Below are positions 38,881 through 64,000 of a stretch of DNA of 64,000 bases, piece by piece. The translations under genes were made by a program, and so were the position numbers. The notes beneath the pieces were generated by a model that saw only the letters and a list, made by a program, of their open reading frames with translations, was not told where the DNA came from and searched no databases. Position 1 is the stretch's first letter; each line of letters begins with the position of its first letter. This stretch comes from Convolutriloba macropyga (taxonomy: Eukaryota): NCBI RefSeq assembly GCF_964194025.1, contig NC_134482.1, positions 16,492,001 through 16,556,000 of the forward strand, written 5' to 3'.

Positions 38881-39586
38881 GAAGTCACTTCGAAATTCTG
38901 ACTTAATATCTCGAACCGCTTCGCGGTTCTCGAAAAACGCCAGAAGTTCTCAGTGACTTCAAGCTGGGTCACGTAACCATTACTTCATGGTTTTGCAGAA
39001 CAGTTTAAAAGAAGTTCAATTACACTGGGCAAATAGTGCCCAAAAAGCTGTAAATTTTAAGTAATGATTTTTTTTTTCATTATTGCATGATTCCGGTGCA
39101 AGCGATTGGAACTATTAGTTTTGATCTCAGCCAAAAAAACGACTAGGTTATGTAACCAGAAAATTTCTACTGTGCGCTTTCTGCAGAATCAACAACAGTG
39201 TATAGTTAACAAGAAATTCTTTTCTGGAAATTTTTCAGATATTTGGTCCAATCAGAGGTACTTAAGATAAACATGGTCTCTGATCAGACCCACTCGCGCC
39301 CAATTTGTCTCCGATCAAGCCCCATATTGGTTGAAAAGGTCTAAAACAAAAACCCATTACTCTCAAAAACGTTTCTGATCAAAACTATTTGCTCTCGCAA
39401 TCGTCTATGAGCAGAACCTCTTGCGCTGGAAATAGTCACTTCCAAGAGAAATTTACACTCGAGATTTCACTAGGCCTCACGATTTTCCCAAATTGTCTTC
39501 GGTTACACCCACTGTACTTCCAATTAATATCTGATCAAACACACTTTTGCTCGAAATTACTTCTCGTCCGACACAATTGAGATGTA

Positions 39587-40646
39587 CCCAGGTTGAGGTC
39601 CCAGACCGAAAGTGGATATGTCCAGACCGAAATGAACGCACAAGGTGGCGTCGTGCGTTCAAAATTACACGGTCTGGAAACGAAAATGAACGCACGATAG
39701 TCTGGACATATGCAATTTTGAACGCACGATGGTCTGGACATAAGCAATTTTGAACGCACGAAAGTCTGGACATTGTGACTCGGAGCGCACAAAATTTTTT
39801 TTCGAATGGAAACAAGAATGCCAAAAACTAATGAGTCCATGTTTGACTAAACACTCTTAATAGAGTGCTCACTCAAGTGAAAGCTTTCTACCAAGAAAAC
39901 CTCAACTCACTTGAGTTCAAAAGTTACAAAACATCGAACGCAGGAAAATTCGCATCCAACATTTTGCTTTGTTTAAAACAATTTCCTACCTAGAATTATA
40001 AACCCTTGCTGAAGTTGCAAAGCAAATCATACTTTAATAACTAGGTCGCTGGCAGCCCCTTCAGCCAATGCTTTCATCGAACATCTTTTATTAAACAAAA
40101 TGTAGGAACTGTTTGGGCACTTCATCACAACCATCACCCTAACGTATCTATATTTGAAACGAATACATTATAAAAACGTTATCTGAACATGAACGCACGA
40201 AAGTCTGGACATACGCATTTTTGAACGCACGAAAGTCTGGACATAGGTGTTTTTGAACGCACGATAGTCTGGACATGAACGCACAAATGAGCGCACGATT
40301 TTTCATTTAGAACGCACTAAAGTCTGGTCATATAAGATTTTGAACGCGCGAAAGTCTGAACATAAGCACGTTTGAACGCACGAAAGTCTGGACATAGGTG
40401 TTTTTGAACGCACAAATCAGCGCACGAATTTTAATTTGGAACGCACTAAAGTCTGGTCATATAAGATTTTGAACGCACGAAAGTCTGGACATAGGGAGTT
40501 TTGAACGCACGATGAACGCACAAAAAATTTTGAACGCACGAAAGTCTGGACATAGGCACTTTCCGTCTGGGAGGGTCTGGACATAGACACTTTCCGTCTG
40601 GGACGGTCTGGACATATCGACTTTCAGTCTGGCACCTCAACCTGGG
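39587..40646. mobile_element. Non-autonomous DNA transposon with ~43-bp TIRs and internal ~33-bp repeats
   Basis: Left TA|cccaggttgaggtcccagaccgaaagtggatatgtccagaccg; right cggtctggacatatcgactttcagtctggcacctcaacctggg|TA. Many tgaacgcacgaaagtctggacata units. Confidence 0.85.
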
Positions 40647-41219
40647 TAAATTGCCTATGACCAGAACAAAAAACGTCTAAAGACTTTTTTGACCCGAGCC
40701 ACTTAAAAAGAGCGTTCTCCCACATTGGAAAAAAACTGTCAATCGAAACAAGTGTCATATCAGGTCAAGAGCTGAATAATCAACTACCAGAATTGCGGGA
40801 ACGCTTATAATTTGAATTTTGAAAACAAGCTAGGTTTCGATAATTTGACTAACTAGTTTTATTAATTTGACTAGCTAGGTTTATATTAATTACTTCGTTA
40901 ACAAACTAGATTTATATTAATTTGAAAACAAGCTAGGTTTCGTTGAAGATTGTAGATAGACCAACTCTGATTTTAAACAGAGTTTCTCTTACACAGGTTC
41001 AAATTTTCTCTTTCCAATAGGTCAAAGTAAAAATAACTGGAACTGCCATTGAATTAATTAAAACAAAAGAGACCTAGTAGCAATTACTTACTACCGCTCG
41101 AAACAGAATTGTGTTGTTCAGCTTAAATTGATCTGTTTTTGAGGTTTTTAGTTTTTAAAGCTTTCAGTTTTTAATTTTTTGTTTTTTTTATGCTTTATTG
41201 AAACTCCTAGTCAAGTGAA

Positions 41220-41760
41220 TAATTGCTTTCAAAGGAAGTTTGTAGAAATTTTATTAGTCCTGTGGTCTTTGTATGCCATTTTTTGCTTGTCCAATTTTTC
41301 GTCCGACCCATTTGACTTTTCGGTCCTCAAAAGCGAGATAAACAGGTAGCGCCCAGAGTTCTTTAAGTTCTCTCAGAACCTTTCAACTCACTACTCTTCA
41401 AGTATGTGATTCACAGAAACTGTTTTGAAAACGTATACTGATGGTATGAAGGGCAGTTCTTAAAGTTTGTCCCGCTACACACCCCCCTCACTTCGCTCCC
41501 CTCCCCCAATCCCCACACTCGACATCGCTCACGCCGTAAGGAAGTGGCCCCGTGCAGCCAAAGAACACGTCCCCCACCGTTGCCCCATCAATCTTCCCGT
41601 TGCACCTCCTCCCTCACCCGCTGCGCTCACCTTACGCCCCTTCAAGTAAGCTAAATCTAGCCCCACTAAAGCCTATCTAGCCACTGGCGAAGCCAACCAT
41701 TTGCCTTTCGTTTGAGTCCAATTCACCCGACGTTGGTCGGTTATGTTTTACTTGTCAAAA
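41220..41760. repeat. Inverted, array-less copy of the 5170-6720 / 1-250 repeat family
   Basis: Reverse complement matches aacataaccgac.aacgtcggg.gaattg (about 5192) and positions 1-130. Confidence 0.65.
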
Positions 41761-45419: not shown

Positions 45420-46275
45420 ATCACACGAGTACCACAACTGGATGCAGTCTATGTAAAAGTACTTGTCGCTTAGGTGTATTCCAGACACGCTATGTTTCTA
45501 CAGCTGAGGTGAATTCCATAAACGTGTACCTTCAATTGAGCTGCAGCCAGTTATGTATACCTGCGGTTCAAGTGAAGTACAGGTAAGCGTACCTGGGGCT
45601 GAGGTGCATTCCACCCGGGGCTGAGGTGTAGTACACCTGGGGTTGAGTTGTAGTGTACCTGAGGTTGAGGTATAGTCCCTTTAGGAGTAACCGTGGCTGA
45701 GGTGAAGTACAAGTACGCGTACAAAGGGCTGAAGTGCAGTCTACCTGGGCTCAAATACACTCCTAGTACGAGTACCTGTGGTTGAGGTGCAGTCCATAAA
45801 CGAGTACACTTTAGGCTGAGGTGTAGTCAATGTATAAGCACCTGCGGCTGAATCTGAGTCCAGGTACGCCTGCCAAGGGCTGAATCCATCTGGAACTGAA
45901 GCGCAGTCCAATTATGAAAACATGCGGCTTAGCTGATGTCGATGTGCAAAAACTTGCGGCTGACATGCAGTCGGCGAAGTAGGCAAACCTACGGCCAACG
46001 AGCAGTCCATTTACGAGTACCTGTGGCTGAGCTGCACCCAATGTATGAGTACCTGCGGTTGAGGTGCGTTCCATCTATGAGTACTTGAGGCTGAGGTGCA
46101 GTTTCTTTACGAGTAATTGTGACTGAAGTACAGTTTATGTGTAGTCCATGTGCTTAGGTGAGTACCTGTGACTGAGCTTTGTTCAAACAAAGCTGACCGC
46201 AGACTGAAGTGCAATCCAGAGGATCTTACCTGCAGCTGAAGGACCGTCGGATGAACAAAGCCTTCAGCTGAGGAG
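45420..46275. repeat. Degenerate ~32-bp minisatellite
   Basis: Consensus gagtacctgtggctgaggtgcagtccatntat; regular units visible at 46015-46130. Confidence 0.85.
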
Positions 46276-48312: not shown

Positions 48313-51300
48313 TCAAATTTGGATAGAATAACAACAATTGAAAATTGGAGTTCCCCAAATTTTGGTATATGAATTGTAGAAGCCTCAATAATAAACATGA
48401 GCAATTGTCTCGTTTTTTGAAAAATCTTAATGAAACCTCATTACTAGTTGTTACCGAAACATGGATAAACGAAATAACTGACATTCCCGAGTTTTATCTG
48501 TGCAATAGCCATCACTTCATTCACCAACCAAGATCATCTTTAACTAATGTACAGAGAGGTGGAGGGGTAGGTATTTGGGTTCCCAAACAGTTTGAAGCAA
48601 AAATGAGAAATGATTTGAACACAATCAATAGAAGTTTTTTTGAGTCAAGGTGGATTGAAATTGGTAAGCCTTTAACACAAAAACTACTCATTAATGTAGC
48701 ATACTGCCCCAATGTAAATCTTTCTAACTTTTTTCTGGATGAAATGACTGTAGAAATCTCAAATGTATATTCGTATACAGATAATCTCATTTTATTAGGA
48801 GATTACAATATAAACTTGTTAGGCACAAAAGGTAGACAGTCACTTGATATTTTCACAGCAAACAATGGGCTATGTTACGTTAATGAAACGGAGGCAACAT
48901 GGACAAATGGTGAAAAATATTCGTTAATTGATCACTGCTTTATCTCGAAGAACCAAATTTTTGAAGCCAGTGTTCTAGAGTCGACTCTTGGAGTTGATCA
49001 CTTCACAATAGTATATCAGTCATCATTAAAAATAGATCACAGTGATAAGAAAAGACAGTTTTTGATACGTTATACCAAGAAATATTCAAGATCAAATTTT
49101 AATCGTGACATTGCGCTGCAAGATTGGTCGCCTATGCACCAGATAAATGAGCCGAACGAAATGTTTTTAAAAGTTATTGAAGTTTTTGAAAGTATACTGA
49201 GTTGTCATGAACCCTTGAAGTTGGTAGACAGTAGTACCAAAAAACAACAAAAGCAATGGTTGACAAAAGAATTACGTGGTCTCATAAATGAAAAACACCG
49301 TCTCTTTAATGCGTGGAAGAAAAACCCAAAATCAGAGATTTATAACATTTACAAATCTTTACGCAATTCGGTGAGTAGAAAACTGAAAAAAGCTGCAGAT
49401 GATTACACAAAGACTTTTTTCCAGCAGCTACCAACTTCAGGAGAACAATGTAAATTCATCAAAAACAGGATCAATTCCAACAGCCAAATAGAAAAAATTG
49501 ACAATTTAAAGGAAAATAGTCATTTTGTTGAGGATGACAGAGAGACTATCAATGTTCTTAATAATTGTTTTGCGAGACTAGGATTATACAAAGGCAAAGA
49601 CGTTGCTCCAAATTGTTCTTCCCTAACATTTGATGGACCGGAATTTAGCTTCCGACCAGTCACCAGAAAAGAATTGTATAATGTTATTGATAATCTACCT
49701 AAGCATAAATCTCCCGGACCGGGCTATGTACCAGCATGGGCGCTAAAAGATAGTAAACTGTCTATTGGAACTCATTTACAATTTGTCGTCAAGGAATGTA
49801 TAAACAAAAACACGTTTCCTTATATTTTGAAAACAGCGCATGTTACACCTGTCTATAAGAAGTGAGATCGACTAGAGCCAGAAAACTATCGACCCATATC
49901 AGTCACACCAACTCTAGCAAAAATTTTTGAGCGAATACTACTTGAACAACTAACTCACCATCTAACTCTTAATGGTCTGATTAACAAGAATCAATTCGGC
50001 TTTCAAAAGCAAAAGTCCTGTCTCGATACTATCATTTCATTAACTGAAAAGATAAACCAATGCGTTGACGAAAGGAAACTGTTGTCACACTCTTTTTAGA
50101 CTTAGCAAAGGCTTTCAACTCAATATCTATAGATGTTTTTATGAACAAAATGAAAAGGTATGGAATTGGAGAAATTGCAAGAATCTTATTAAACTCTTTC
50201 CTTTGTGACAGAAAACAGTTTGTAAAAAATCGGATAGCAAAATCAGATTGGGTTGTCATAAATCACGGTGTTCCTCAGGGAACTGCCTTAGGGCCTCTAA
50301 TTTTTATACTTTATGTCAACGATTTCAGTGAAGCTGTATCAACGAATTGTGATGTATTACAGTTTGCCGATGATACAGCAATTCTATGTCATGCACAGAA
50401 TGAAGCAATTTTACAGTTAATAGCTGAAGATACATTCAACAAGACAGATCAATATATGAAACAAAACAGGTTAACTTTGAATGAGAAAAAAACGGAGTTA
50501 ATGGTGTTCAGGAATGAAAAATTGCCGATCATTGAAACTGTCGATTTCAAGGGACACCGATTGGAAACATCTGAAAAATGTAGATATTTAGGTGTAATAA
50601 TTGATAGGGAACTGACATACCAAAATCAACTAAATAAGGTTATCAGTAAAATGGCTTCAGCAATCAGATCATTATATTTGGTTCGTTATCAGGTACCGCT
50701 AAAAACAAGAATAAATCTTTTTAAATCACTAGTTTTGTCTCATTTAGATTTTAGCGCAATTTTTTTTCAAAATTTACCATCTTACTCTATTGACAGAATT
50801 AACAAACACATAAACTGGGGGAAAAAAGTTTGCTTTATGAAAACCAAATACGATACTGCCAGAGATCTACTTCTGGAGACTAAAATTCTTCCAGCAGAGC
50901 TCCAAATAACACGGGTGTCTTTAAATAGATTTTTCAATATTCTCCAACAAACAAGAAATCGCTCTAATAAACATTTCAGATTTTTAGAAAACGTGTCTAT
51001 TATTGTAAACAAACGAACCCATAACCTTTTCTTAGAACAAAAATGTAAGTCAAAATGGAGTAATGGTTCAATTGTTCGTAACTTTATTCGAAAATGGAAC
51101 ACACTTCCAATTACAATTAGAAAAGAAACGTCGAAGACCAAATTTAAACAAAAAGTTACAGCGGAAATGCTTAAACGACACGAAAGAGTTCCAATAGACA
51201 GAAGTGGTGCAGGATTTAAACATATTTTTTATTAGATTATTTTACGAAAACCGAACCTTAGTTTGTTATAAATTAGAAAAAAATAATGTTTGATTAATAA

Positions 51301-52434: not shown

Positions 52435-53730
52435 TGTATTACCAACCAGAATATACGCAACTACTTGGCAAGCCAAAATATTGTTGATTCAAGAGGGTGA
52501 TAAAACCCACTTTGCATTGAAATTGAAGCCACAGATCCAGAATTTGAACTTTTGTTCCGTTGGTTTGTTTATCAATCCGAGCAGTGATATGATAGCATCT
52601 GGAACCTTACTATGGGGACCAGAAAACTGTCGTAGAGTTTTCGTCGACGGATCTCTTTTTTCAAGCTACGGCTCACATTAAGCTCTTCTTGCTTAAATCA
52701 AGATCGTGACCGGATTTATGGGTAAACTTCTGTAATAATCACATTCGTTTATAAAAAATATCATTCGAAAAACGGAAAAATTGTTCCTAAATAAAACATT
52801 GTTATATGTTATTTTGACTTAAATCAGGGAATCACTGCTAGAGAGCGTTAATGGACACAATCATTTCGCTTCACTAGACAAAAGTCATCCTCAGACTCTA
52901 TCAAATTTGGCTGGGCTGCTACAGATCACACAATACGAGATCTCTTTATGTATGCCAGTCAAACTTGACAAAAGATATAACAAATCGAAGGCAAAGATAT
53001 ATCCCTAAGACCTGTCTGTGCTATAAGTCTCAATTTAAAACTGTTGGGGGGCTGAAAAGTTCAATTAATTAAATAGATAGTTTAAATAAACAAGCTTACA
53101 CTGAGTAGTATTTAACCGGGTTGAGCTGTTACTTGATTGTGTTGTTGTTAAGTGAGTGCGTCGTTGAAACTTCTTCAAGTCGGGTTCTGTTTGAAAGTTA
53201 GAAAATGTTCTTCTAAGTAAGAAGTCTTTTATATAATTTCTTCTCTGTTTGAATTTTGAAATTTAGTTTGTAGGAAAAATGAAGCAGTTGTCTGCTGCTG
53301 GTCGTTGGCTCTGTTATTTGTCTCTTTAATTTTATTCCGTCCCACTTCGCTGAGAGAAACAATTAATTCCTCTCAGCTCCGTTTGGGCCGTTAGGGAGCG
53401 AATCACAAACTCACGTTCATAGTGCAGCTGTCATATTGCAACTGTCAAAAGCAGAAGTAATTTAAATCAAAAGAAACTGTGGTTTTACAGGCCGCCTACG
53501 TTCAACAACGTACATTTTCTGTCCTGGATATAAGCGTGGAGATCCAGGCCTAAAGTTGTGTCATTTAAATAAGTCGAACTGAGTTGTTTAAATACTTGTG
53601 TACTGGTAGTCTTAATAAGCGTTAGTTTGTTTAGCGCGCGGCGAAAGAATGGTTAATTAGCGCCTAAATACGTTCGCTCTAATGCGGGATTAATTATCCG
53701 TTCATTTGTAACGGCTCTCGTAATAATACA
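52435..53730 (-). repeat. Putative 3' LTR (~1.3 kb)
   Basis: On minus strand, starts TGTATTA right after purine-rich AAAATCGGGGTGAGC and ends TAATACA (7-bp terminal inverted repeat), followed by ATAT(C). TATATAAAAG at about 53226-53235. The 5' LTR is not in the window, so the distal end is inferred. Confidence 0.6.
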
Positions 53731-53921: not shown

Positions 53922-55096
53922 TTAGTTAAAAAATTCTGGAGGCAAAATGACTGGGCTTGGCATCGGACTGTTACCATCGTCTTCGATCAAAAGAACCTCT
54001 TGTATATCGTCCTCAGTTGGTTCGTCCTTATCCATTGACTGTCGCTTTTTGTGCTTTTTAACCCTCCTTTTGAGCTCGGAAATTTTGGTTTTTTGTTCAT
54101 CGTTTTCCTTCATTAATTGTGTTATTTTCTTTCCTAGCTCCAGATTCTTTTCTCCAAGTTTTTTGTTGGCGTTTGTTATTTCTAGATGTTTCAAGGAGAA
54201 CGTTTTAGCAAAGTTTGCGCGTTTGATTTGCTGGTTTTTTGGAGTTGATGGGCAACGACATATTGGCGCCGCCAATAGTCGTTAGGTAGTTGCTTCTCCT
54301 CAGGTGGTTTCTGTGATTCCATTTTAAGTTGTTCAAATTTCAGTTGCAATTCTTGCAACTCTGTTTCCTTTTGAAATTGTTCCTGCCTGAATGTGGTGTT
54401 TTCCTCTATTAAACTATTGGTGTTGATATTTGATAGTTCTGGCATCTCGACAGGAAAAGCGGAAATGGCATCGTAGGGGACTTCAATATATGCGTCGAGC
54501 ATGTTATTCCTAAGGGTATAAATGCCCTTCTTAGGGTCGCGATTTTTGATTCTCCATTTGTTGTTTTCTGCGGGAAGCGAGAAGGTTTTCAGAACTGGAA
54601 GCTTTTCGCTGTTGACTAGTATCTGTTGATGTCTATTTGACTGGATGATGTTTATTTTATTAGCAACCTCAAATTTGTTGTAGTTTGGTTTCAGGAAATA
54701 GAGGAGGGTGTTAACGTATCTCGGGTTTTCTTTATTCATGTTCTTCTCTCGCGGTTTCTGCAATTTCAAACATTCTGAGGGTATTTTCCTGATAGCGTCG
54801 GGAACGAGATCTTCAATGTTGTTCATCTTAATAATTTTGTTTTTGTGATTGCTAATTTGTTGGGTTGGGAATTGTCTCTTTCTGCTAACTTGCCAGTTGT
54901 TTTCGGGATCATATTGACTGGAAGTTGATGGAGATGCAACAGTTGTAGTAACTTGTTGTGTGTTCTGAGGTTTAAATGGAGGCTTTGTGAAAATAGGAGG
55001 CTGAGAAGAATGGGTTTGTGTTTGTTCTTGTTGTGTTGTCACTTGTTGATGTTGACTGGGGATTACTACGCTTGCGAGTGTGGGTCTGGTAGTCAT
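53922..55096 (-). pseudogene. Accessory protein (~390 aa if one frameshift near 54200 is repaired): Q/T/P-rich N-terminus, coiled coil, basic NLS-like patch, acidic tail
   Basis: Overlapping ORFs 54191-55096 and 53922-54275; LELGKKITQLMKENDEQKTKISELKRRVKKHKKR; EDDIQEVLLIEDD. Confidence 0.55.
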
Positions 55097-55500: not shown

Positions 55501-55785
55501 AACCTTGCTGAATTGAAAGAAAGAAATTTTCCGGGTCATTCTTGGAATTTTCAGTTATCGTGTTAGTGTTCTGAATTATTTAGGTTCAAAAGCCAGGGGG
55601 GCAGGCTGGAGAAAGCTGAGGTAACCCCTTCCCGAGGAAAAGTTAAGAGAGAGAGAGAGAGAGAGAAAAAGATCGTTTGTACTTGAGTTGTTTTTGATTT
55701 ATTAGACAACGTCGTCTAAAAAAATTTTTTGCAAATGGGACATCTTGTCAGCTTATTTATGCACACCCGACAGAATCGGTGTTTG

Positions 55786-56097
55786 TCATGTTGGGAAAAA
55801 TGTGGGTGTTTTGTTACTCCTAATTCTGTTTTCATTTTTTTTGCATAAATTGCAATGAAAGTAGGATGTGATCAGGACGCGAAGACAAGCTCGAAGACAA
55901 ATGGGACATTTAGGGTTTGGGTATCTTTTAAAAAGTGCCTTTCTGCAAGGAATACATACATAGTGAGGATTTTCTCTGGGAAATTGCTTATGTAGTTTTT
56001 CTACAGTAACGGTTTTTCGTGAACATATGGGGCAGATAATGTCCGTATGGGGGTAGAACCAACGGAAACCGTCGAATAGGGATTGTGAAAGACCCAT
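55786..56097 (-). CDS. Accessory RING-like zinc-finger protein C (103 aa, MGxxxS myristoylation motif)
   Basis: CPIC-KLH-PHYVCIPC-PKCPIC-FHCNLC; paralogous to 56556 and 57157 ORFs. Confidence 0.75.
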   Translation of the reverse strand: MGLSQSLFDGFRWFYPHTDIICPICSRKTVTVEKLHKQFPRENPHYVCIPCRKALFKRYPNPKCPICLRACLRVLITSYFHCNLCKKNENRIRSNKTPTFFPT

Positions 56098-56121
56098 CGA
56101 GTGACTGTTCTCTTATTTTCC

Positions 56122-56244
56122 TTAGATAGAAACAGGAAAACCTTTGAGAAACTGCAGTAGGATGAGATTAATGAGGAACGATATGGCAAGCAAGGTAATT
56201 AGGATTAGGATAAATATTTTTGTGGATAGGCCTAGATTGGTCAT
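56122..56244 (-). CDS. 40-aa single-TM micropeptide
   Basis: MTNLGLSTKIFILILITLLAISFLINLILLQFLKGFPVSI*; AAAATG start 2 nt after the previous stop. Confidence 0.55.
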   Translation of the reverse strand: MTNLGLSTKIFILILITLLAISFLINLILLQFLKGFPVSI

Positions 56245-56246
56245 TT

Positions 56247-56363
56247 TCACTGTCTGGAGAAAATTTGGCGAATTGTGGAAAGGAGGTAGTGATTAATAAA
56301 AAGGGATATTGCCAATGCGCATAAGAGAACAAATAGAAGAATAAACAATGTTATGGGTTGCAT
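56247..56363 (-). CDS. 38-aa single-TM micropeptide
   Basis: MQPITLFILLFVLLCALAISLFINHYLLSTIRQIFSRQ*; shares LAIS.+IN..LL with 56122-56244; AAAATG start 4 nt after the previous stop. Confidence 0.55.
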   Translation of the reverse strand: MQPITLFILLFVLLCALAISLFINHYLLSTIRQIFSRQ

Positions 56364-56367
56364 TTTG

Positions 56368-56505
56368 TCAATTCAATGAGTAGTGTAGAACTAGGGTGAA
56401 GGAGGTGACTTGCTTCTGGTAAAAACTGAGTTGAATTAGGGATATCGATTGGATTAAAAATAAAACTAGGGAAAGAAGTAAAATTTTGGATGTTCTTGGA
56501 CGCAT
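56368..56505 (-). CDS. 45-aa hydrophobic micropeptide
   Basis: MRPRTSKILLLSLVLFLIQSISLIQLSFYQKQVTSFTLVLHYSLN*; AAAATG context. Confidence 0.45.
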   Translation of the reverse strand: MRPRTSKILLLSLVLFLIQSISLIQLSFYQKQVTSFTLVLHYSLN

Positions 56506-56555
56506 TTTAGGTTATGTGATTGTTTTTTTGCAACGAGGGCATAATTTATAATCTT

Positions 56556-56888
56556 CTACGCAAAATTTACAAAAGTTGACGGGCTCATGATCACTGTGAT
56601 GAAACGTTTTTGCAACAGAATATTGAAATCTTGTTTCTTGCAAATATCACATTGAAACCAGTTAAAGATTGAAAAGATAACTCTAAATTTAGAGCATTTA
56701 GGACAAAAATCATAGCCCATATCTTTTATAACATATTGGTAACAGAGCAGACACATTACGTGGGGTAGTTCGTTAGGGGCGTTCTCGTGTAATTTCTTGA
56801 AAACAATTGTTTCACGTCTGCAGCATAAACCAATTAATGAGACCGGTTTGGATTCTATAGTATTGGTTTCTTTGTCAATTGTATTCAT
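56556..56888 (-). CDS. Accessory RING-like zinc-finger protein B (110 aa)
   Basis: GLCC-KKLH-PHVMCLLC-CPKC-FQCDIC, same spacing as paralogs. Confidence 0.72.
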   Translation of the reverse strand: MNTIDKETNTIESKPVSLIGLCCRRETIVFKKLHENAPNELPHVMCLLCYQYVIKDMGYDFCPKCSKFRVIFSIFNWFQCDICKKQDFNILLQKRFITVIMSPSTFVNFA

Positions 56889-56914
56889 TTTTGAAAGATT
56901 GTTATTGGAAGAAA

Positions 56915-57163
56915 TTATGGGACTGGCACGGTTGGAGGATTTGGTTGTCGATTATTTTGGGATTTTATTGTTTGGTCTATTACTAATATAATTATGAACA
57001 TCAAAAAGTTGAAAGGAATACTTACAACTACGAGGAAAACGGTTAAAACGAAGGAGAAGGCTGCTGCAATAATCATAAGGGCCATTAATAAAAAATCAAG
57101 TAATCTGGGGGTACACATTTTGGATAGTTTGTGAACGTAGTTTTGAATTGAGGATTTTACCAC
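56915..57163 (-). CDS. Small membrane protein (82 aa, long hydrophobic segment)
   Basis: LLDFLLMALMIIAAAFSFVLTVFLVVVSIPFNFLMFIIILVI; start overlaps the previous stop (ATGGTAA). Confidence 0.6.
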   Translation of the reverse strand: MVKSSIQNYVHKLSKMCTPRLLDFLLMALMIIAAAFSFVLTVFLVVVSIPFNFLMFIIILVIDQTIKSQNNRQPNPPTVPVP

Positions 57164-57555
57164 GGGTTGTTTGGGTCAATTGTTTGTTTGCATAAAGGGC
57201 ATTTAGTAGTTGTGAAAATCATACACTGCAAACAAACTGATTTTTTTGGGTGTAGGCTTTTGAAGTGGCTGTGGCAAGTGCATAACTTTTTGATTTCTTG
57301 ACAAGAATCACACTGGAAATAATGGCAATGACTGATTGTATAAATGGGAGTTACGCAAATGGGGCATTTAGGTTGGTTCCAATATTTAAATAATTCATTT
57401 CTACAAGGAATGCAAGCAAAAGGGGGGGTTTGACCGTTTGGGTTTTTGTGCAATTTTTTAAATTGACGACAAGGGAGGTAACAAATAGGACATTCGATTT
57501 TTGGGGTTGAGTCAATTTGTGGTTGCTGAGATAATATTTCCAAAATGTTTCCCAT
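57157..57555 (-). CDS. Accessory RING-like zinc-finger protein A (132 aa, extra C-terminal Cys cluster)
   Basis: CPIC-KKLH-CIPC-PKCPIC-FQCDSC, then CTCH..H..CLQC..CPLC. Start overlaps the previous stop (TAATG). Confidence 0.75.
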   Translation of the reverse strand: MGNILEILSQQPQIDSTPKIECPICYLPCRQFKKLHKNPNGQTPPFACIPCRNELFKYWNQPKCPICVTPIYTISHCHYFQCDSCQEIKKLCTCHSHFKSLHPKKSVCLQCMIFTTTKCPLCKQTIDPNNPW

Positions 57556-57821
57556 TATATGGATAAATCAGAGAGATCTGGGTATGCGACTCCTAATCCA
57601 TGGTGTTCAAGTTCGTTGGGGATAGTTACATTTAGATCTGCGATAGCAAAAAAGAAATTCCAGTGTTTCTCGTTTGGATAGATGTAATAATGATTAATGC
57701 TACCTGTGCTTAGGAACATAAAAGTTATTTTGATACATGCTTTATATTGTATAAAACAGATAGTAAACCATCTTTCTGCTTTAACAATTTTAACTTTTTC
57801 CTTACCAATGAACAAAATCAT
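57555..57821 (-). CDS. Accessory family A protein (88 aa)
   Basis: MILFIG..VKIVKAERWF...P..KHWNFFFAI...IPNEL family signature. Confidence 0.65.
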   Translation of the reverse strand: MILFIGKEKVKIVKAERWFTICFIQYKACIKITFMFLSTGSINHYYIYPNEKHWNFFFAIADLNVTIPNELEHHGLGVAYPDLSDLSI

Positions 57822-57944
57822 TTTATTTTTAACAATTTGGAATGAATTGAGGGAAAAGGGACAAATTGATTAGAAAAAAAAGAAATAATGAGCAGGGAAA
57901 AAAATTATTTTTTTCGGAGAGAAAGTTATGTGAAACAAATTACT

Positions 57945-58175
57945 TTACTGAAGAGCGCCCAAGTTGACTGGGAAGTGCTCTTCGATATCAATGAGTGCAA
58001 GAAAGAATTCCCAGTGCATCATTCCCATGGTGACTCGAGTAGAACCCTCACATCCACGCTCGTAGTCTGTATAGTGTATAATTATACAGGGTTTAATCTC
58101 TGCTGTGGGAGTTTTAATGAAAGATCTCTCGAGGGACTCTACTTTGACTAGGCGCTCACCAAAGTGGAACAGCAT
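57945..58175 (-). CDS. Accessory family A protein (76 aa)
   Basis: MLFHFGERLVKVESLERSF...PCIIIHY...HWEFFLAL...FPVNL; TAATG overlap with the previous ORF. Confidence 0.68.
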   Translation of the reverse strand: MLFHFGERLVKVESLERSFIKTPTAEIKPCIIIHYTDYERGCEGSTRVTMGMMHWEFFLALIDIEEHFPVNLGALQ

Positions 58176-58408
58176 TATAGAAGATCTAAATTAAAAGGGA
58201 TTTTAGAACCATTTAAAGCTTGGGATATATTTATAAAGAATGTCCAATAGGGGGAAGATGGTGTTAGGGTAATGGTTTCATCAGTCCAAGTGTTTAAATA
58301 TTCAAAATGGAGTATTAGTTGTGGGATTACTCTGTTGCTTTTTGTCGTGACAAATGATTTTTCAAAAAATTGTACTTGTTTAAGGCAGTTTTGGTATGAG
58401 AATATCAT
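58175..58408 (-). CDS. Accessory family A protein (77 aa)
   Basis: MIFSYQ...EKSF...PQLILHFEYLNTW.DETITLTP.S.YWTFF...IPFNLD. Confidence 0.68.
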   Translation of the reverse strand: MIFSYQNCLKQVQFFEKSFVTTKSNRVIPQLILHFEYLNTWTDETITLTPSSPYWTFFINISQALNGSKIPFNLDLL

Positions 58409-58416
58409 TGCTGCTT

Positions 58417-58701
58417 TTAATTGTGAATAGTTTCCAACTCTTTAAGGATTGAATCGTTTTGGCTAGAATCAGTCTTTTGCATATCAAAATAAATATTGTG
58501 AGGTACACAGTTTGGATTTTCTAGAATAAATAGGAAGAATTTCCAATGAACTGAGAGAGGATTAATACTTATTAAACAAATTTTTTCACTTTAGATTTCT
58601 TTGAGCGTTACTAGCATAGTAGGTACAGGAGTTGGCTATGCATCAAAAGATCGTTGAATTTTTTGTAACTCTACAAATTTATTGTTAACTGCAAATATCA
58701 T
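58417..58701 (-). pseudogene. Accessory family A paralog with two in-frame stops
   Basis: MIFAVNNKFVELQKIQRSFDA*PTPVPTMLVTLKEI*SEKICLISINPLSVHWKFFLFILENPNCVPHNI. Confidence 0.6.
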
Positions 58702-58957
58702 AGTTTAGAATGATACCTAAGCAATGTAGATTGGATGTTGTACTTGAAATACCAAGTTCTCTTTGAATGCTAGAAAAATGGTAAATTCGGCGAACTGAGG
58801 ATGAGTAATGAAAATAGTTAAAAGTCTGTAAATATTTGTCATGGGTTTTTTTTGCGAAAGTCATTATATTTATAGCGGAAACATAGTATACGGCTAATAG
58901 CTCAAAATTTTGGTTTCCGATTCTGATTTGTAAGTTTCTATTAGTTAAATGAATCAT
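58685..58957 (-). CDS. Accessory protein (90 aa), weak similarity to 59491-59775
   Basis: ATG ORF overlapping both neighbours by 17 nt; L.IR.G...++L...+SA+ shared with the 59491 ORF. Confidence 0.5.
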   Translation of the reverse strand: MIHLTNRNLQIRIGNQNFELLAVYYVSAINIMTFAKKTHDKYLQTFNYFHYSSSVRRIYHFSSIQRELGISSTTSNLHCLGIILNYDICS

Positions 58958-59183
58958 GTTGCTGATCTAGCTCTTTTGGCAAACTATTAGGGTCGAATTG
59001 TGCTAAATACACGAATTAATTCCAACACAACGAATGAGGGGTTAAAATCACAGTATCGTTTTCCCAAGTGTCTCAAAACTCAAAATTTATAACAATTTGA
59101 GGGAAAATGTCTCCGTGTTGTTCTTCAAAGGTTTTCTTTATTTGATAAATTGTAACAAGTCTATCTTGAAACAAAAAGTACAT
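58941..59183 (-). pseudogene. Accessory family A paralog with two in-frame stops
   Basis: MYFLFQDRLVTIYQIKKTF...PQIVINFEF*DTWENDTVILTPHSLCWN*F..LAQ...LPKELD, clearly colinear with 58175-58408. Confidence 0.65.
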
Positions 59184-59490
59184 CAATGGAAGCGTTTTAG
59201 TTGTTAATTAACTTAGTGTTCTTCATTTCAAAATTGGTATTAAAATAAATTTTTAAAAAAAGGATAAAAAAGAGTGTCAATTATTTCTAAAAACAGGATT
59301 ATTGACAACGATTGATATTTATAGATAATATATCAATCGGATTCACTGTAGTAAAATCGGAGTAGGGGGAGAGTGCAGGCAATAGCTAGATGAACATAGT
59401 TGGGATTACATAATTGAAACTGGATTATAAGAAATAAAAAGAAAGAAAGAAATTCATACATGTCTCTCAATGTTGAACTTACAAGAGAAT

Positions 59491-59775
59491 TCAAAATCTA
59501 GTAATATTTTTCTTCAGGTGCTTTGAAACAATTTCGTATTCGATTCCAATGTTTACAAAAGTAATTGTGTTATCAATCAGGGCTCCTAACAATGAGAAGT
59601 TTTGAAAATTTGAATGTGGTACATCCAGATCAATGATGTCACTGAAGTAGAAAGATGCAACTCTAATAGTTACAGTAGTTTTCAAGGCGGAAATACTTGA
59701 TGATAATATTTGTCCGGTGTATTGTCCAAATCGAATGAATAAAGCGTTAGGCTGTTTTATGAATTTGGGCTGCAT
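59491..59775 (-). CDS. Accessory protein (94 aa), first ORF after env
   Basis: ATG-initiated, co-oriented ORF; function unknown. Confidence 0.5.
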   Translation of the reverse strand: MQPKFIKQPNALFIRFGQYTGQILSSSISALKTTVTIRVASFYFSDIIDLDVPHSNFQNFSLLGALIDNTITFVNIGIEYEIVSKHLKKNITRF

Positions 59776-59902: not shown

Positions 59903-62337
59903 TTAAGGAGGTGTCACCACACTTCGAATTATTGCATCATTTTGTGGTTGTGGTTGATGTGACGCCAGACTTGGGTATTCTGCTTTATTATTTTCTGTAT
60001 GACAATGCTCATCAATTTTATTTTCTCTTGGTTGATCCTCAACGCATTTGTAAGTTTTTTCTATTGTGCTGTAAGGTTGATAATTACTAAGCGGTAAAAA
60101 GTGATTGTTGTTCTGTGGGGCCGACGGTTTGGTTTCGTTAGAGAATACCGGTGTAAAGAACGATAAGATACAAAGATTATATGTTGCTCCTAATAGAATT
60201 TTCCAAAAACCCATTGTTTTGTTGGATATTTTGTGGATTTCGAACGCTCTTATGATTGTTACGATTACATCAGTTAAGAATTTTATGCAAAAGAAACAAG
60301 CAAAATAAACTCCAATTTTTTCCAGATAAAAAGTGATGATTCCAAAAGTGCCTTTGAACTGGTCTGTAAAAAATGTAGGTGAAAGAAGAGAATCTAGATA
60401 AATTTGTCTGTTAATTCCCATTACTGACGCATAGATATCTTTTTGAGAATTTGTCTATGCTTCTTCCTTCTAGAACTTCTCTTGAAATTTTTGTCAAAAC
60501 AGATTTTGAAGCTTCCGAATGCAAGATATTGTCCCAAAACGATTTAAGCTGATTTGGTGTGTAAATTCCGGCACGTTGCGATTCGTAACCGGTAAATTTT
60601 GGAATAGAACTAATAACTCTTGAAGAGAATATGTTTGGCGGTTGTAAAGGAACAGGTGCTGGCATCAAATGGTACTATGAGTTTTCATTATCAATATCTA
60701 ATTGGTAGGCATTTTTATAGCCTCCAACACAATCTACTTCGTTTGCAGATGGGCAGGTTTGTCGAGTAATTGGGTCGACGAACATTGTCCTACCATCATA
60801 ATGAATAGGAATTCTATCATAACACTGCTCAAGAACCTGAAGTGGTGAGTTTGGGTTTGGACAGTGGTACAGCCAACCTATGCTACCATCTGTGTCTAAG
60901 AACATCGAGCGGTTGCCGGTTAACATATATCCAGCTAAACGATTGTTTTGGATAGCCTGCATTAGTATCATTTGTTTTTGAGTTCGGTCAAGTTCGCATT
61001 GTTCTATGACCAAACCTTTCCATGCTTGTTTTTTTTGTTTGCATGTAACTATGATATATGACAAAATCCATTTTTACCGCAAGATTAAGATCATAGTCTA
61101 ACTTCTCTTTGTCTAAGTGTTCCCATGCAACAAAACCTTTGTCGAATGTTCGGATCTGTTCATCTGAAGGCTTCCTATTAAACCCATTTACACTTAGGCT
61201 ATTGTCAGGTTCAACACGAAGTTTATGAAAAAATTGTTGAGTTTTTTGTTTTATAAGGTTTGCCAGTCTTCATATTAAATCCGCCTTTATAAGAAACATA
61301 TAAAGAATCTAAATTTGTTCTGTAAATAAATTCTGGTTTTCCACACACCTTTTCTTTTTCATCAATTACTCTAATTTTTATGTCCATTTCAGCAGGAGAA
61401 TACGCTCCTGGTCCTTCATAGGGCGTCTCCGGTTTTTCATTACTCACTATGAAATACTGTACGTTACCAAGTTCGTTTTCATGTTTTAGCATTTTGGCGT
61501 TTTGTGAAAATCTTTTAGTAACTATACAATTTTCCGGTGCTTCCCAATTGTATGCAAAGGGGTCGAGTGATGTCGAATGACAACCTCCTTCTGAGAGGGC
61601 ACAAGGAAGTTTTAGTCCTTGACTGTTATAGACAGTTCTGTCATTAAGATCAATATCGAGTACAGTTTCTTGCATCAGGGTTTCAAAAGAGAAAAAGAGA
61701 AGTGTTTAATTTGACCACGATTATCACAAGATGTTGATGAATCACCTTCAAGATCAACTCCCTGGTTTTTATAGGAGACAGTTTTTTTTCCATGTTTTAT
61801 GTCAATTTCCATGTCATCATCGTCAAATTCGGTAACAGTAATTTTTCCAGTTTTATTAGCATTTAGGCATTTTTCGGGTGAAACAATAATATCGTATGTT
61901 ATTATTGGAGCGTTGTGTACAATTGATGAATGGGAAAACATACCACAATTATAACGAATGAGCATTGCAGTGACTTTGCACATAAGAGCTTTAACAAAGT
62001 TCCGATAAGACCGTTGATAAAGTGTTACATGTGTATCAACCATCTGAATGTTTTCGGGTGAATTTTTGCAAGGAGAAACTTGTGTTAAAGCATACATTTT
62101 ATTTTCTTTCATTTTAGAACAGTCATAATGAATGACCCTAAGTTTGTTAGATACGTCATTAATATCCTCAAAAGGAGGTCCAGTGGCGTTAATAACTATA
62201 GGAAGAGTACAAAAGTAGAAAAGACTTATAAGTAAATAAGAAAAATAGAGTTTTTCAAAACAAGGATATCTGTTCATCCTGTTCTTTTTTAGCGCTTCAA
62301 GTCGGGAATTAAGGCTATGAGTTGTAGTAATAGGCAC
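59903..62337 (-). pseudogene. env: Envelope glycoprotein, chuvirus-like / class III fusion type, split by frameshifts and one stop
   Basis: Signal-like YFSYLLISLFYFCTLPIVINA. Motifs HYDC, CKV..YNCGMFSH, LDYDLNLAVKMDFV, AGY..LYHC..CYDRIPIHY..FVDPITRQ..EVDC and GIYT..QL. C-terminal TM segments. Confidence 0.75.
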
Positions 62338-62380: not shown

Positions 62381-62967
62381 TTAAGTAACTCCGGCTTGAT
62401 AGCGTGATGGCGGCTCGGCCGAGCGACTAGAAGTTCGCCTATTATTATTATTATTTTCTAAAGTTTGTAAATTATAAGATCCTTGTTCCGATGTATTAGG
62501 GCGGAGAGGACTTAAATTAGGGTCTAGAGGTATTCTAGAATTATGCTGTGGGCAAGGAGTTGAACTTCTTGTTCGACTACCGCCAGGCAACTGTGTTTGG
62601 ACTGGAGGTGGGTTAACACGACCACCTGAACTTGCTTCGTTGAATCCAGAATCGAAATTGGTAGGAGTTCGGTCAGGGTCGAAGTTCTGCACAGGGGAGT
62701 CTCTTCGTATGAAATTCTCCACGGGGAAATTTTCGGTGTTAGTGGGGCTTTGGAAGGAGAATTTAGTCAAGGGACTGTTGAGTTTATTCATCTGACTTGT
62801 CATTAGATTATTATAAAATGTGTCACAATTATTTTTATCTATACCATATTCTAGGGTTAACTCTGGTATAGTTTCAGTAGCTGGGTAGTACTCGACTAGG
62901 TGATTTCTATGAGCGACCTTCCTGGTGGCCGGGTTGCTATCTAAAGTTAATTCATAGTTAACATTGG
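62381..62967 (-). pseudogene. Frameshifted integrase C-terminal extension (S/T/P/N-rich)
   Basis: After GPY, TNVNYEL...VAHRNHLVEYYP continues in a shifted frame, followed by the low-complexity ORF 62381-62803. Confidence 0.55.
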
Positions 62968-63999
62968 TTAGTTTTTTTCTACTGTATAAGGTCCTGATCT
63001 TATTTCATGTAGTTTTTTTGACTTTCCTAACTCAATTTGATGGTTTTCCATTAGAACTTTTTGTCCAACCTCAAGTGGCTTGCCTAATTTGTGTTTGTTT
63101 CTATGTTTATGTGCGCGGTTATTGTTTTCTAAGCTCTTTTTATAAGCGTTATTGTATATTTGTTTGAATTGGTTTTCTTGCATAAGCAACGAATTGTTAA
63201 TAGTCGGTTTTAGAAGTTTGTCAATTTCGGTGTTTTTTGAAGTTAGCAAGGTATGCCTGTGAAGAGGCAGGTCTTTGCAAAACTCGGAAGAGCATGTGAG
63301 TTGTGAATTTCGTAGGAGTCCTAACTTAAGTGACAGAGGTATCTGTGGTTTTTGTCCGAACACAATTTCATAAGGTGAGATTCCAGTACTAGCATTTGGA
63401 ACCGTGTTATGAGAAAAAGCAAATTTTGGTGCCAGTTCATCCCATTTACCTCGAGCTTGTTCTAGAAAAATTCGGAAATGTGCTCCTAGATGTTTGTTTT
63501 GGATCTCAACTTTACCATTAGTCCAAGGCGCATAAGCAGTTCGAGGTGCGGGTCTTATACCTAAATCATGAATGTAACTCGCAAAATCTTGGTTCATGAA
63601 TGCCGAACCCTTATCATAAACAAGTTTTTGTGGTATTCCAGAAGACAAGATGAACTTTTCTAAAGCTTTTATGGTGTGTACTGCGACTGTGGAACGTACA
63701 GGGTATACTTGAATCAAACGCGAAAATGAATCGACAATAACTAAACAATGGTGTTTACCAATCGATGGAGGATTTAAAGGTCCTTTGTGATCAATATGGA
63801 CCGTATGAAAGGGGAATGGGACTGTATCATTCCAATTTTCGAGAGGTGCTTCGTGGATTTCTCTCCGTTTTTTTTCATTTTTTTTGCATTCCAGGCAATC
63901 AGCAATTAGGTTTTCAATCCATTTATACATTCCGGGCCAATAGAAAAATCGTTTTACATTAGCAAGTGTTTTATCTAAACCTACATGATCTGACAGTTC
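62968..63999 (-). CDS. pol: Ty3/Gypsy integrase (3' end of pol; open off the right edge)
   Basis: H.GLDKT..FYWPGM..CLEC zinc domain; HIDHKGP, VYDKGSAF-x35-E (NGKVE) DDE triad; GPY motif (RSGPYTV). Confidence 0.95.
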   Translation of the reverse strand, partial: ELSDHVGLDKTLANVKRFFYWPGMYKWIENLIADCLECKKNEKKRREIHEAPLENWNDTVPFPFHTVHIDHKGPLNPPSIGKHHCLVIVDSFSRLIQVYPVRSTVAVHTIKALEKFILSSGIPQKLVYDKGSAFMNQDFASYIHDLGIRPAPRTAYAPWTNGKVEIQNKHLGAHFRIFLEQARGKWDELAPKFAFSHNTVPNASTGISPYEIVFGQKPQIPLSLKLGLLRNSQLTCSSEFCKDLPLHRHTLLTSKNTEIDKLLKPTINNSLLMQENQFKQIYNNAYKKSLENNNRAHKHRNKHKLGKPLEVGQKVLMENHQIELGKSKKLHEIRSGPYTVEKN

Positions 64000-64000
64000 A

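Follow-up and report, generated by a model that had tools for sequence, protein, structure and literature searches.

Paralogous tandem zinc-module genes in the accessory cassette of an env-carrying Ty3/gypsy retroelement from Convolutriloba macropyga

Long terminal repeat (LTR) retroelements of the gypsy type that carry an env gene are usually described as three-gene elements. One env-carrying Ty3/gypsy element, lying partly within a 64,000-nucleotide stretch of the Convolutriloba macropyga genome (contig NC_134482.1, positions 16,492,001 to 16,556,000; this whole stretch is hereafter the window), was found to hold a dense, selected accessory cassette as well. Three open reading frames (ORFs) of the cassette, here named A, B and C, are paralogous accessory genes of this element, and each of them encodes, in natural copies of full length, a pair of C2H2C4 zinc modules in tandem, with 16 ligands in all.

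The closest described elements are the gB-type env Ty3/gypsy elements known as 'ancient errantiviruses'. In the accessible text of their description (PMC13524379) they show the same LTR-gag-pol-env order, a pol with reverse transcriptase (RT), RNase H and integrase, a gB-like env, and many near-identical copies. The element described here differs from them in having about 16 extra ORFs after env and three before gag, and the words 'RING', 'zinc' and 'accessory' do not occur in the main-text body of that paper. The giant Burro LTR elements of planarians are likewise gypsy-like with env homology, and the available sections of PMC6431247 list among their extras MATH/TRAF, BIR, BCL2 and an AIR1 motif 'with RING Zn-finger'; ubiquitin- and apoptosis-related domains in Burro are noted there, as are accessory ORFs in fish foamy-like endogenous retroviruses. 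However, as far as those sections go, the Burro extras are mostly domains of one polyprotein of 4,900 amino acids (aa), whereas the genes described here are free-standing, small paralogous ORFs within a dense 3' cassette. RING, zinc, myristoyl and ubiquitin are not among the terms of the available portion of a paper on bdelloid extra ORFs (PMC5408684). A search that covered few subscription papers and few repeat databases found no earlier account of stand-alone, paralogous genes for tandem C2H2C4 RINGs in a retroelement; the elements themselves may have been catalogued before. We regard the genes as a real, selected and apparently undescribed accessory family of a known element class, whose function we infer.

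Among proteins, the C2H2C4 RING dimer of MDM2/MDMX shares the ligand order, the C-x2-C-x10-H spacing, a similar stretch after the last Cys and about 30% identity by Foldseek. MDM2 has His452 where the third Cys would be expected (PMC7010608, in the sections consulted). The similarity is not statistically significant, and the present proteins differ in the distance between the two His (x7-8, against x4 in MDM2), in holding two modules in one chain, in their likely myristoylation, and in having no p53-binding, acidic or RanBP2 domain. The RNF4 RING-RING chain (PDB entry 4ap4), which we take to be an engineered fusion, is the best sequence match and repeats one RING twice; the tandem found here occurs naturally, has C2H2C4 ligands and is asymmetric. 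Arenavirus Z resembles the family proteins in small size, an N-terminal Gly2 (here a motif only), a flexible N-terminal arm and a RING, and is set apart by the two modules, the different ligand set, the lack of a late domain and the retroelement with its own Gag seen here. The viral RING ubiquitin ligases (E3s) ICP0 of herpesvirus and IE2, PE38 and CG30 of baculovirus, which are single C3HC4 RINGs in larger DNA-virus proteins, head the viral structure search at E 0.008-0.18, none of these matches being significant.

Three tandem zinc-module genes and their retroelement

The three genes occupy the following positions in the window.

57157..57555, minus strand: ORF A, 132 aa, starts MGNILE and ends in a conserved NPW tail; full length, without one module-1 ligand
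56515..56888, minus strand: ORF B, paralog; intact 110-aa part at 56556-56888, starts MNTIDK; frameshifted past the fourth CxxC, without one module-1 ligand
55719..56097, minus strand: ORF C, paralog; intact 103-aa part at 55786-56097, starts MGLSQS; frameshifted past the fourth CxxC

All three have the layout CxxC, KLH, CxxC, x12, CPxC, FxCxxC. They are 32-41% identical to one another (E 1e-10 to 1e-19), and the motif occurs three times in the window against zero times in 150 codon-block shuffles, in its strict and loose forms alike. An earlier sequence-only reading of this region had placed three paralogous ORFs with a common motif here and had noted the Met-Gly starts of A and C; both points were confirmed, and Gly2 is conserved across lineages. 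That reading missed that two of the three are broken: in the window copies of B and C the second modules run on in other frames (approximately 56515-56640 and 55719-55865). Owing to these frameshifts it recognised no more than module 1 with the opening CxxC of module 2. The FxCxxC, formerly taken as the end of the domain, is instead the start of a second zinc module that is complete in ORF A and in full-length B and C. In full-length copies B is 125 aa long and has no Gly2, while C is 126-130 aa long and keeps the MGLSQS start.

Module 1 has the form C-x2-C-x10-H-x7/8-H-x2-C-x2-C-x12-22-C-x2-C and is followed, after a linker of 14-15 residues, by module 2 with the form C-x2-C-x9-21-H-x3-11-H-x5-C-x2-C-x6/7-C-x2-C. 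All 16 ligands are present in 11 of 14 proteins tested across lineages. Among full-length ORFs from loci that partly overlap, the complete set was found in 28/30 for A, 35/42 for B and 31/35 for C, so the Cys/His positions are kept across element copies. Tree-based omega, the ratio of nonsynonymous to synonymous substitution (dN/dS), was 0.28 for A (17 sequences), 0.33 for B (32) and 0.29 for C (24), while shifted frames of the same alignments gave 1.2-2.3. This estimate replaced pairwise dN/dS from bins, in which the binning itself introduces a bias; any decay that followed insertion should raise the values for A, B and C. All three genes evolve under purifying selection. In the family tree, only 3 of 13 inner branches have support.

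The element spans 19,368 bp, in the window and the neighbouring stretch together. Its LTRs are 832 bp long and 99.2% identical with TG...TA ends, a primer-binding-site-like sequence starts with TGG, and a 4-bp target-site duplication flanks the element in both copies inspected (2/2). Three small ORFs precede gag, which is followed by pol, a gB-type env and the approximately 16 small ORFs that fill the space up to the 3' LTR; the order of Pfam domains is Retrotrans_gag, RVT_1, RT_RNaseH, rve and Monjiviricetes_fusion. Gag starts MAANVV and is without Gly2. In the assembly of 1.18 Gb there are 987 candidate places for ORF A, of which 150 were scored, and nine further copies were taken from the best ORF A matches. 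All have one arrangement: gag (about 444 aa) comes after three small ORFs and is followed by pol (about 1630 aa), env (756-782 aa) and the cassette, and between the cassette and the LTR lies a last ORF of either 371 or 391 aa. Pol is unbroken in seven of the nine and env in all nine, and the LTR pairs are 99-100% identical in eight. The suggestion that the genes are encoded by a retroelement is thus upheld by the LTRs, the target-site duplication, gag-pol-env, and the presence of the cassette in the element's own copy and in 9/9 further copies. The window copy is decayed, with pol, env, s3, B, C and the last ORF all broken. In 13 of 20 lower-identity copies (L040-L059), ORF A is broken near codon 44 within a proline-rich stretch, a hot spot of mutation or of assembly error.

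Predicted fold and relatives

In the model of an ORF A-type protein (P0002) the mean predicted local distance difference test score (pLDDT) is 76. Residues 21-90 reach 84-91, residues 1-16 form a disordered arm below 50, and a central helix occupies residues 49-58. Searched against the PDB with Foldseek, the model matched RING proteins in 41 of the 41 matches listed, including a Ring1B-BMI1 fusion (E 0.023), MDM2 (E 0.12), RNF8 and TRIM21. The best PDB sequence match of the family profile, to the chain holding the RNF4 RING twice, spans both modules (E 7.5e-4). One of 22 members, P0116, passes the Pfam zf-C3HC4_3 cut-off (27.2 against 27), and RING families were indicated by the Atlas, as a lead only. 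P0116 can be aligned to the MDM2 RING over C-x2-C-x10-H and again beyond the last Cys (E 0.016-0.7), and the fit of the alignment to MDM2 agrees with the proposal that a His replaces the third Cys. Module 1 is predicted to adopt a RING fold. Folded alone, module 2 has a pLDDT of 80 with weak RING and U-box matches (best Foldseek E 0.45, PML RING); its predicted fold is RING-like, though weaker and degenerate. The products had been described as RING-variant zinc fingers, which fits the prediction for module 1 but overlooked the second RING-like module of each protein.

A LIM-domain assignment was considered and rejected. Compared with the LIM pattern of ligand spacing, the third ligand pair is not at LIM distance, and LIM was matched at just E 0.005 in 2 of 22 members.

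A second element family is present in the same genome, approximately 15.5 kb long with 804-bp LTRs, its Pol 72% and its Env 63% identical to those of the first. It has the identical cassette order and two tandem-RING genes, P0116 and P0119. The cassette of s ORFs listed below stands beside RING genes at 38/38 further loci, with pol or env within 10 kb at 34/38. These loci were picked by ORF A similarity, and stand-alone copies may exist elsewhere. Family-2 copies that have no pol (L084-L089, one of them also without gag) have kept both LTRs, env and the whole cassette.

An unrestricted profile search returned 39 representative proteins, all of 67-203 aa, with no named member among the clusters read. 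One of these, P0123, is not in the C. macropyga assembly (best identities about 39-46%), and four of the 15 listed members of its cluster are on contigs sized exactly as those of a related env cluster (233920, 135805, 125524 and 502635). The P0121 cluster and another env cluster have one contig size in common, 14,468 bp, while P0124 and P0132 had no such contig match among 10 env clusters looked up. The shared contig sizes, though indirect, are specific evidence that the tandem C2H2C4 RING family, which has expanded by duplication, also travels with gB-env elements outside this genome. Scans of viral and metagenome contigs found nothing on the genomic context of the distant homologues; the sole metagenome locus returned (L109) was on inspection an unrelated gene.

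Within the host genome, 30 of 61 PF13920 loci were compared with the module-1 profile as possible sources of the RING domain, and none is C2H2C4 or scores above 11.9 bits. An MDM2 gene may exist among the remaining host loci. Since no source was found among the host RINGs examined, the likeness to MDM2 is treated as analogy and not as shown descent. An intronless host gene of family PF00179 for a ubiquitin-conjugating enzyme (E2), presumably UBE2N/Ubc13, was seen at L097:1471-1932 on the minus strand.

Functional signs and possible roles

Family proteins are 124-170 aa long and consist of a short N-terminal arm and the two modules. In the 11 of 13 proteins that were matched, the E2-contact pattern of module 1 has V/I/C after Cys1 (11/11), L/V/I/Y/W on the helix (11/11, Trp in three of them) and Pro after Cys7 (11/11). 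The module-2 helix position is mostly polar, being hydrophobic (L, Y, A) in 3/11. According to the consulted sections of PMC7010608, hydrophobic E2-contact residues, terminal basic residues and C-terminal dimerisation residues matter for RING E3s, a positively charged residue after the last Cys being important in many of them. An aromatic C-terminal tail (NPW, DPWN or SVWD) is found on A-type proteins, and B, C and P0119 are without it. Met-Gly starts were found in 7 of 11 lineages (A, C, P0119, P0121, P0124, P0126 and P0132), not in B, P0116, P0123 and P0127, and also in two divergent B relatives. Counted per full-length ORF, Met-Gly occurs in 30/30 of A, 35/35 of C and 1/42 of B, against 1/380 of the other cassette ORFs.

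On balance, sequence and predicted fold make it probable, by a modest degree, that A, B and C are membrane-anchored single-chain RING-dimer E3 ligases or E3 mimics acting on host proteins. Module 1 would bind host E2~ubiquitin through its conserved hydrophobic positions, and module 2 would act as a built-in partner RING, as MDMX does in two-chain ligases, or BMI1 and BARD1, which are partner RINGs of such ligases. MDMX is inactive alone and stimulates within the dimer, as stated in the accessible part of PMC6465955. The aromatic tail of A-type proteins could help to prime transfer, and myristoylation would bring the proteins to the membranes used by Env and particles in their traffic. Different targets or compartments might be served by the three paralogs, which are 28-41% identical, with B, which has neither Gly2 nor tail, perhaps cytosolic or non-catalytic. 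Host restriction or stress factors as the targets are a guess.

Several points weigh against this reading. The Foldseek check for a RING fold succeeded for module 1 insofar as all listed matches were RINGs, but no match had an E of 0.001 or better and module 2 was weak. The best VIA match of the model is itself a RING, that of TRAF5/6, with a Z score of 5.6 (root-mean-square deviation (rmsd) 7.0, 86 aligned; matches lie mostly over residues 14-87), but a VIA Z below 8 can reflect a common arrangement. For module 2 the best VIA Z was 3.1 (CNOT4 RING, rmsd 2.6, 47 aligned), with ZZ domains also among its matches at Z 2.0-2.5. Arg or Lys follows the last Cys in just 2/11 proteins in module 1 and 3/11 in module 2. 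Position 6 of ORF A is Lys or Glu, a weaker myristoylation context, as Ser or Thr at this position favours the modification. No substrate-binding domain was found beyond the short N-terminal arm, and many RINGs are not ligases. If the proteins were ligases, these would be retrotransposons with their own ubiquitin enzymes, and the targets would reveal which host factors restrict such elements in animals that have been little studied. As a natural, asymmetric RING dimer within one chain, such a protein could also serve as a compact model of how an E2 is activated by a partner RING.

More tentatively, and by analogy, the RING trio may represent a one-chain heterodimer of MDM2/MDMX type, in which myristoylated, element-encoded ligases would destroy host anti-transposon or antiviral factors and the elements would be complex invertebrate analogues of retroviruses with about 19 accessory genes. 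The parallel that this draws with lentiviral accessory proteins, here with a catalytic RING of their own, is offered just as tentatively.

It is unlikely that the proteins are instead matrix or budding adaptors similar to arenavirus Z, that is, packaged myristoylated RING proteins that tie Gag cores or Env to the membrane and have no ligase activity. Such a role would suit their small size, the Met-Gly start combined with a RING, and an element whose env is of fusogen type while its Gag is without Gly2. Lassa Z is also among the structure matches (rank 31, E 0.42), and Pfam zf-P11 is matched weakly (E 0.04-0.2). However, cellular E3 RINGs rank above Z in every search, B and the family-2 R1 are conserved though they have no Gly2, and a paralog number of three in one element family and two in the other is unlike a core structural gene. 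The late domains PTAP/PSAP, PPxY and YPx(1-3)L are absent in 19/20 family proteins, including A, B and C, whereas C-terminal late domains are common in Z (PMC3509680, in the text available). Because 19/20 of the proteins are without PTAP, PPxY and YPxL, and Z has a single RING where these have two modules, the budding analogy drawn in the sequence-only reading is weak.

A role as inactive RING decoys, which might dampen a host response by tying up host E2s or by joining dimeric host RING ligases of MDM2, IAP or TRIM type, appears rather improbable. It would account for the poorly kept basic residue after the last Cys and for the lack of a substrate-binding domain, and the alignment (E 0.016-0.7) matches module 1 to the beginning of the MDM2 RING at every ligand, with a comparable 'QPI...Y' stretch at the end. 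Yet the MDM2 similarity is not significant, the host RINGs at the 30 of 61 loci compared include none with two His ligands and none that is conspicuous when scored with the module-1 profile, and the built-in second module would fill the dimer surface.

Still harder to credit are zinc-finger regulators of the element's own RNA or transcription, either Tat- or Rev-like or suppressors of silencing. ORF C is basic, the cassette needs some unusual expression route, and such proteins are encoded by complex retroelements (Cer1 CERV; PMC10309623, in the part available), but the structure matches are RING or U-box and not nucleic-acid-binding fingers, and the conserved Gly2 suggests membranes. Neutral passengers or chance ORFs, for which only the decay of the window copy would speak, are refuted by omega values near 0.3, by ligands kept between families whose Pol is just 72% identical, and by the absence of the motif from 150 shuffles.

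The cassette and the rest of the window

The other parts of the element that fall in the window are as follows.

52899..53730, minus strand: 3' LTR, 832 bp, TG...TA
53922..55096, minus strand: last ORF, broken in the window; full-length copies encode 391 aa with no known domain
56125..56505, minus strand: three hydrophobic ORFs between B and C, 38-45 aa
56915..57118, minus strand: hydrophobic ORF between A and B, 67 aa, likely transmembrane; omega 0.53
57555..59183, minus strand: ORFs s2-s7, 76-94 aa; the s7 stop overlaps the ORF A start; s3 broken in the window
59336..59775, minus strand: s1 (94 aa) and a hydrophobic ORF of 42 aa (59336-59461) directly after env
59903..62277, minus strand: env, gB-like, Pfam Monjiviricetes_fusion; in five pieces in the window
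62381..64000, minus strand: 3' portion of pol, holding the integrase; broken, with the rest of pol, gag and the 5' LTR lying outside the window

From s1 to ORF C the cassette is 90% coding, most gaps being shorter than 40 nt, with two one-base stop-start overlaps. It is not depleted of ATG (observed/expected 0.94 and 0.85, against approximately 0.5 in 5' leaders), and plain leaky scanning is therefore unlikely. Splice-acceptor-like sites are not enriched upstream of the cassette ORFs, and a similar T-rich TTTAG site was found in both element families only at s1. Reinitiation would fit as the route of translation, given the stop-start overlaps and gaps of 2-38 nt.

The five short hydrophobic ORFs (38-67 aa) are interleaved with the RING genes and are possible small membrane or fusion peptides. 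The s ORFs include a second paralog family of 75-94 aa, with five members in element family 1 and four in family 2. Phe19, Trp55, Phe58 and Pro70 are invariant in it, it is under purifying selection (s6 omega 0.20), and it has no match in Pfam, the PDB or the Atlas. The last ORF exists in two forms (391 and 371 aa) among near-identical elements, and many copies match at just about 45%, which suggests module exchange or fast evolution. In L054 and L058 the accessory cassette is tandemly duplicated inside single insertions. At the other end of the element, in L027 and other copies, the 5' leader just inside the 5' LTR holds a tandem array of approximately 104-bp units that are 70-75% alike, followed by the three small ORFs, of which u1 and u2 are related to one another.

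Elsewhere in the window, a LINE-type (long interspersed nuclear element) element at 48369-51235 on the plus strand has its endonuclease and RT in two pieces. Between 26812 and 38000 the sequence is directly duplicated, in near-identical form, with a period of about 5.69 kb. Two arrays of 32-bp repeats are located at 39582-40651 and 45445-46132, the first flanked by 48-bp inverted repeats in the manner of a miniature inverted-repeat transposable element. Dispersed inverted repeat segments at 55-223 and 41220-41389 lie 41 kb apart and are 83-86% complementary. An exon at 7473-7988 on the minus strand presumably belongs to a class I histone deacetylase.

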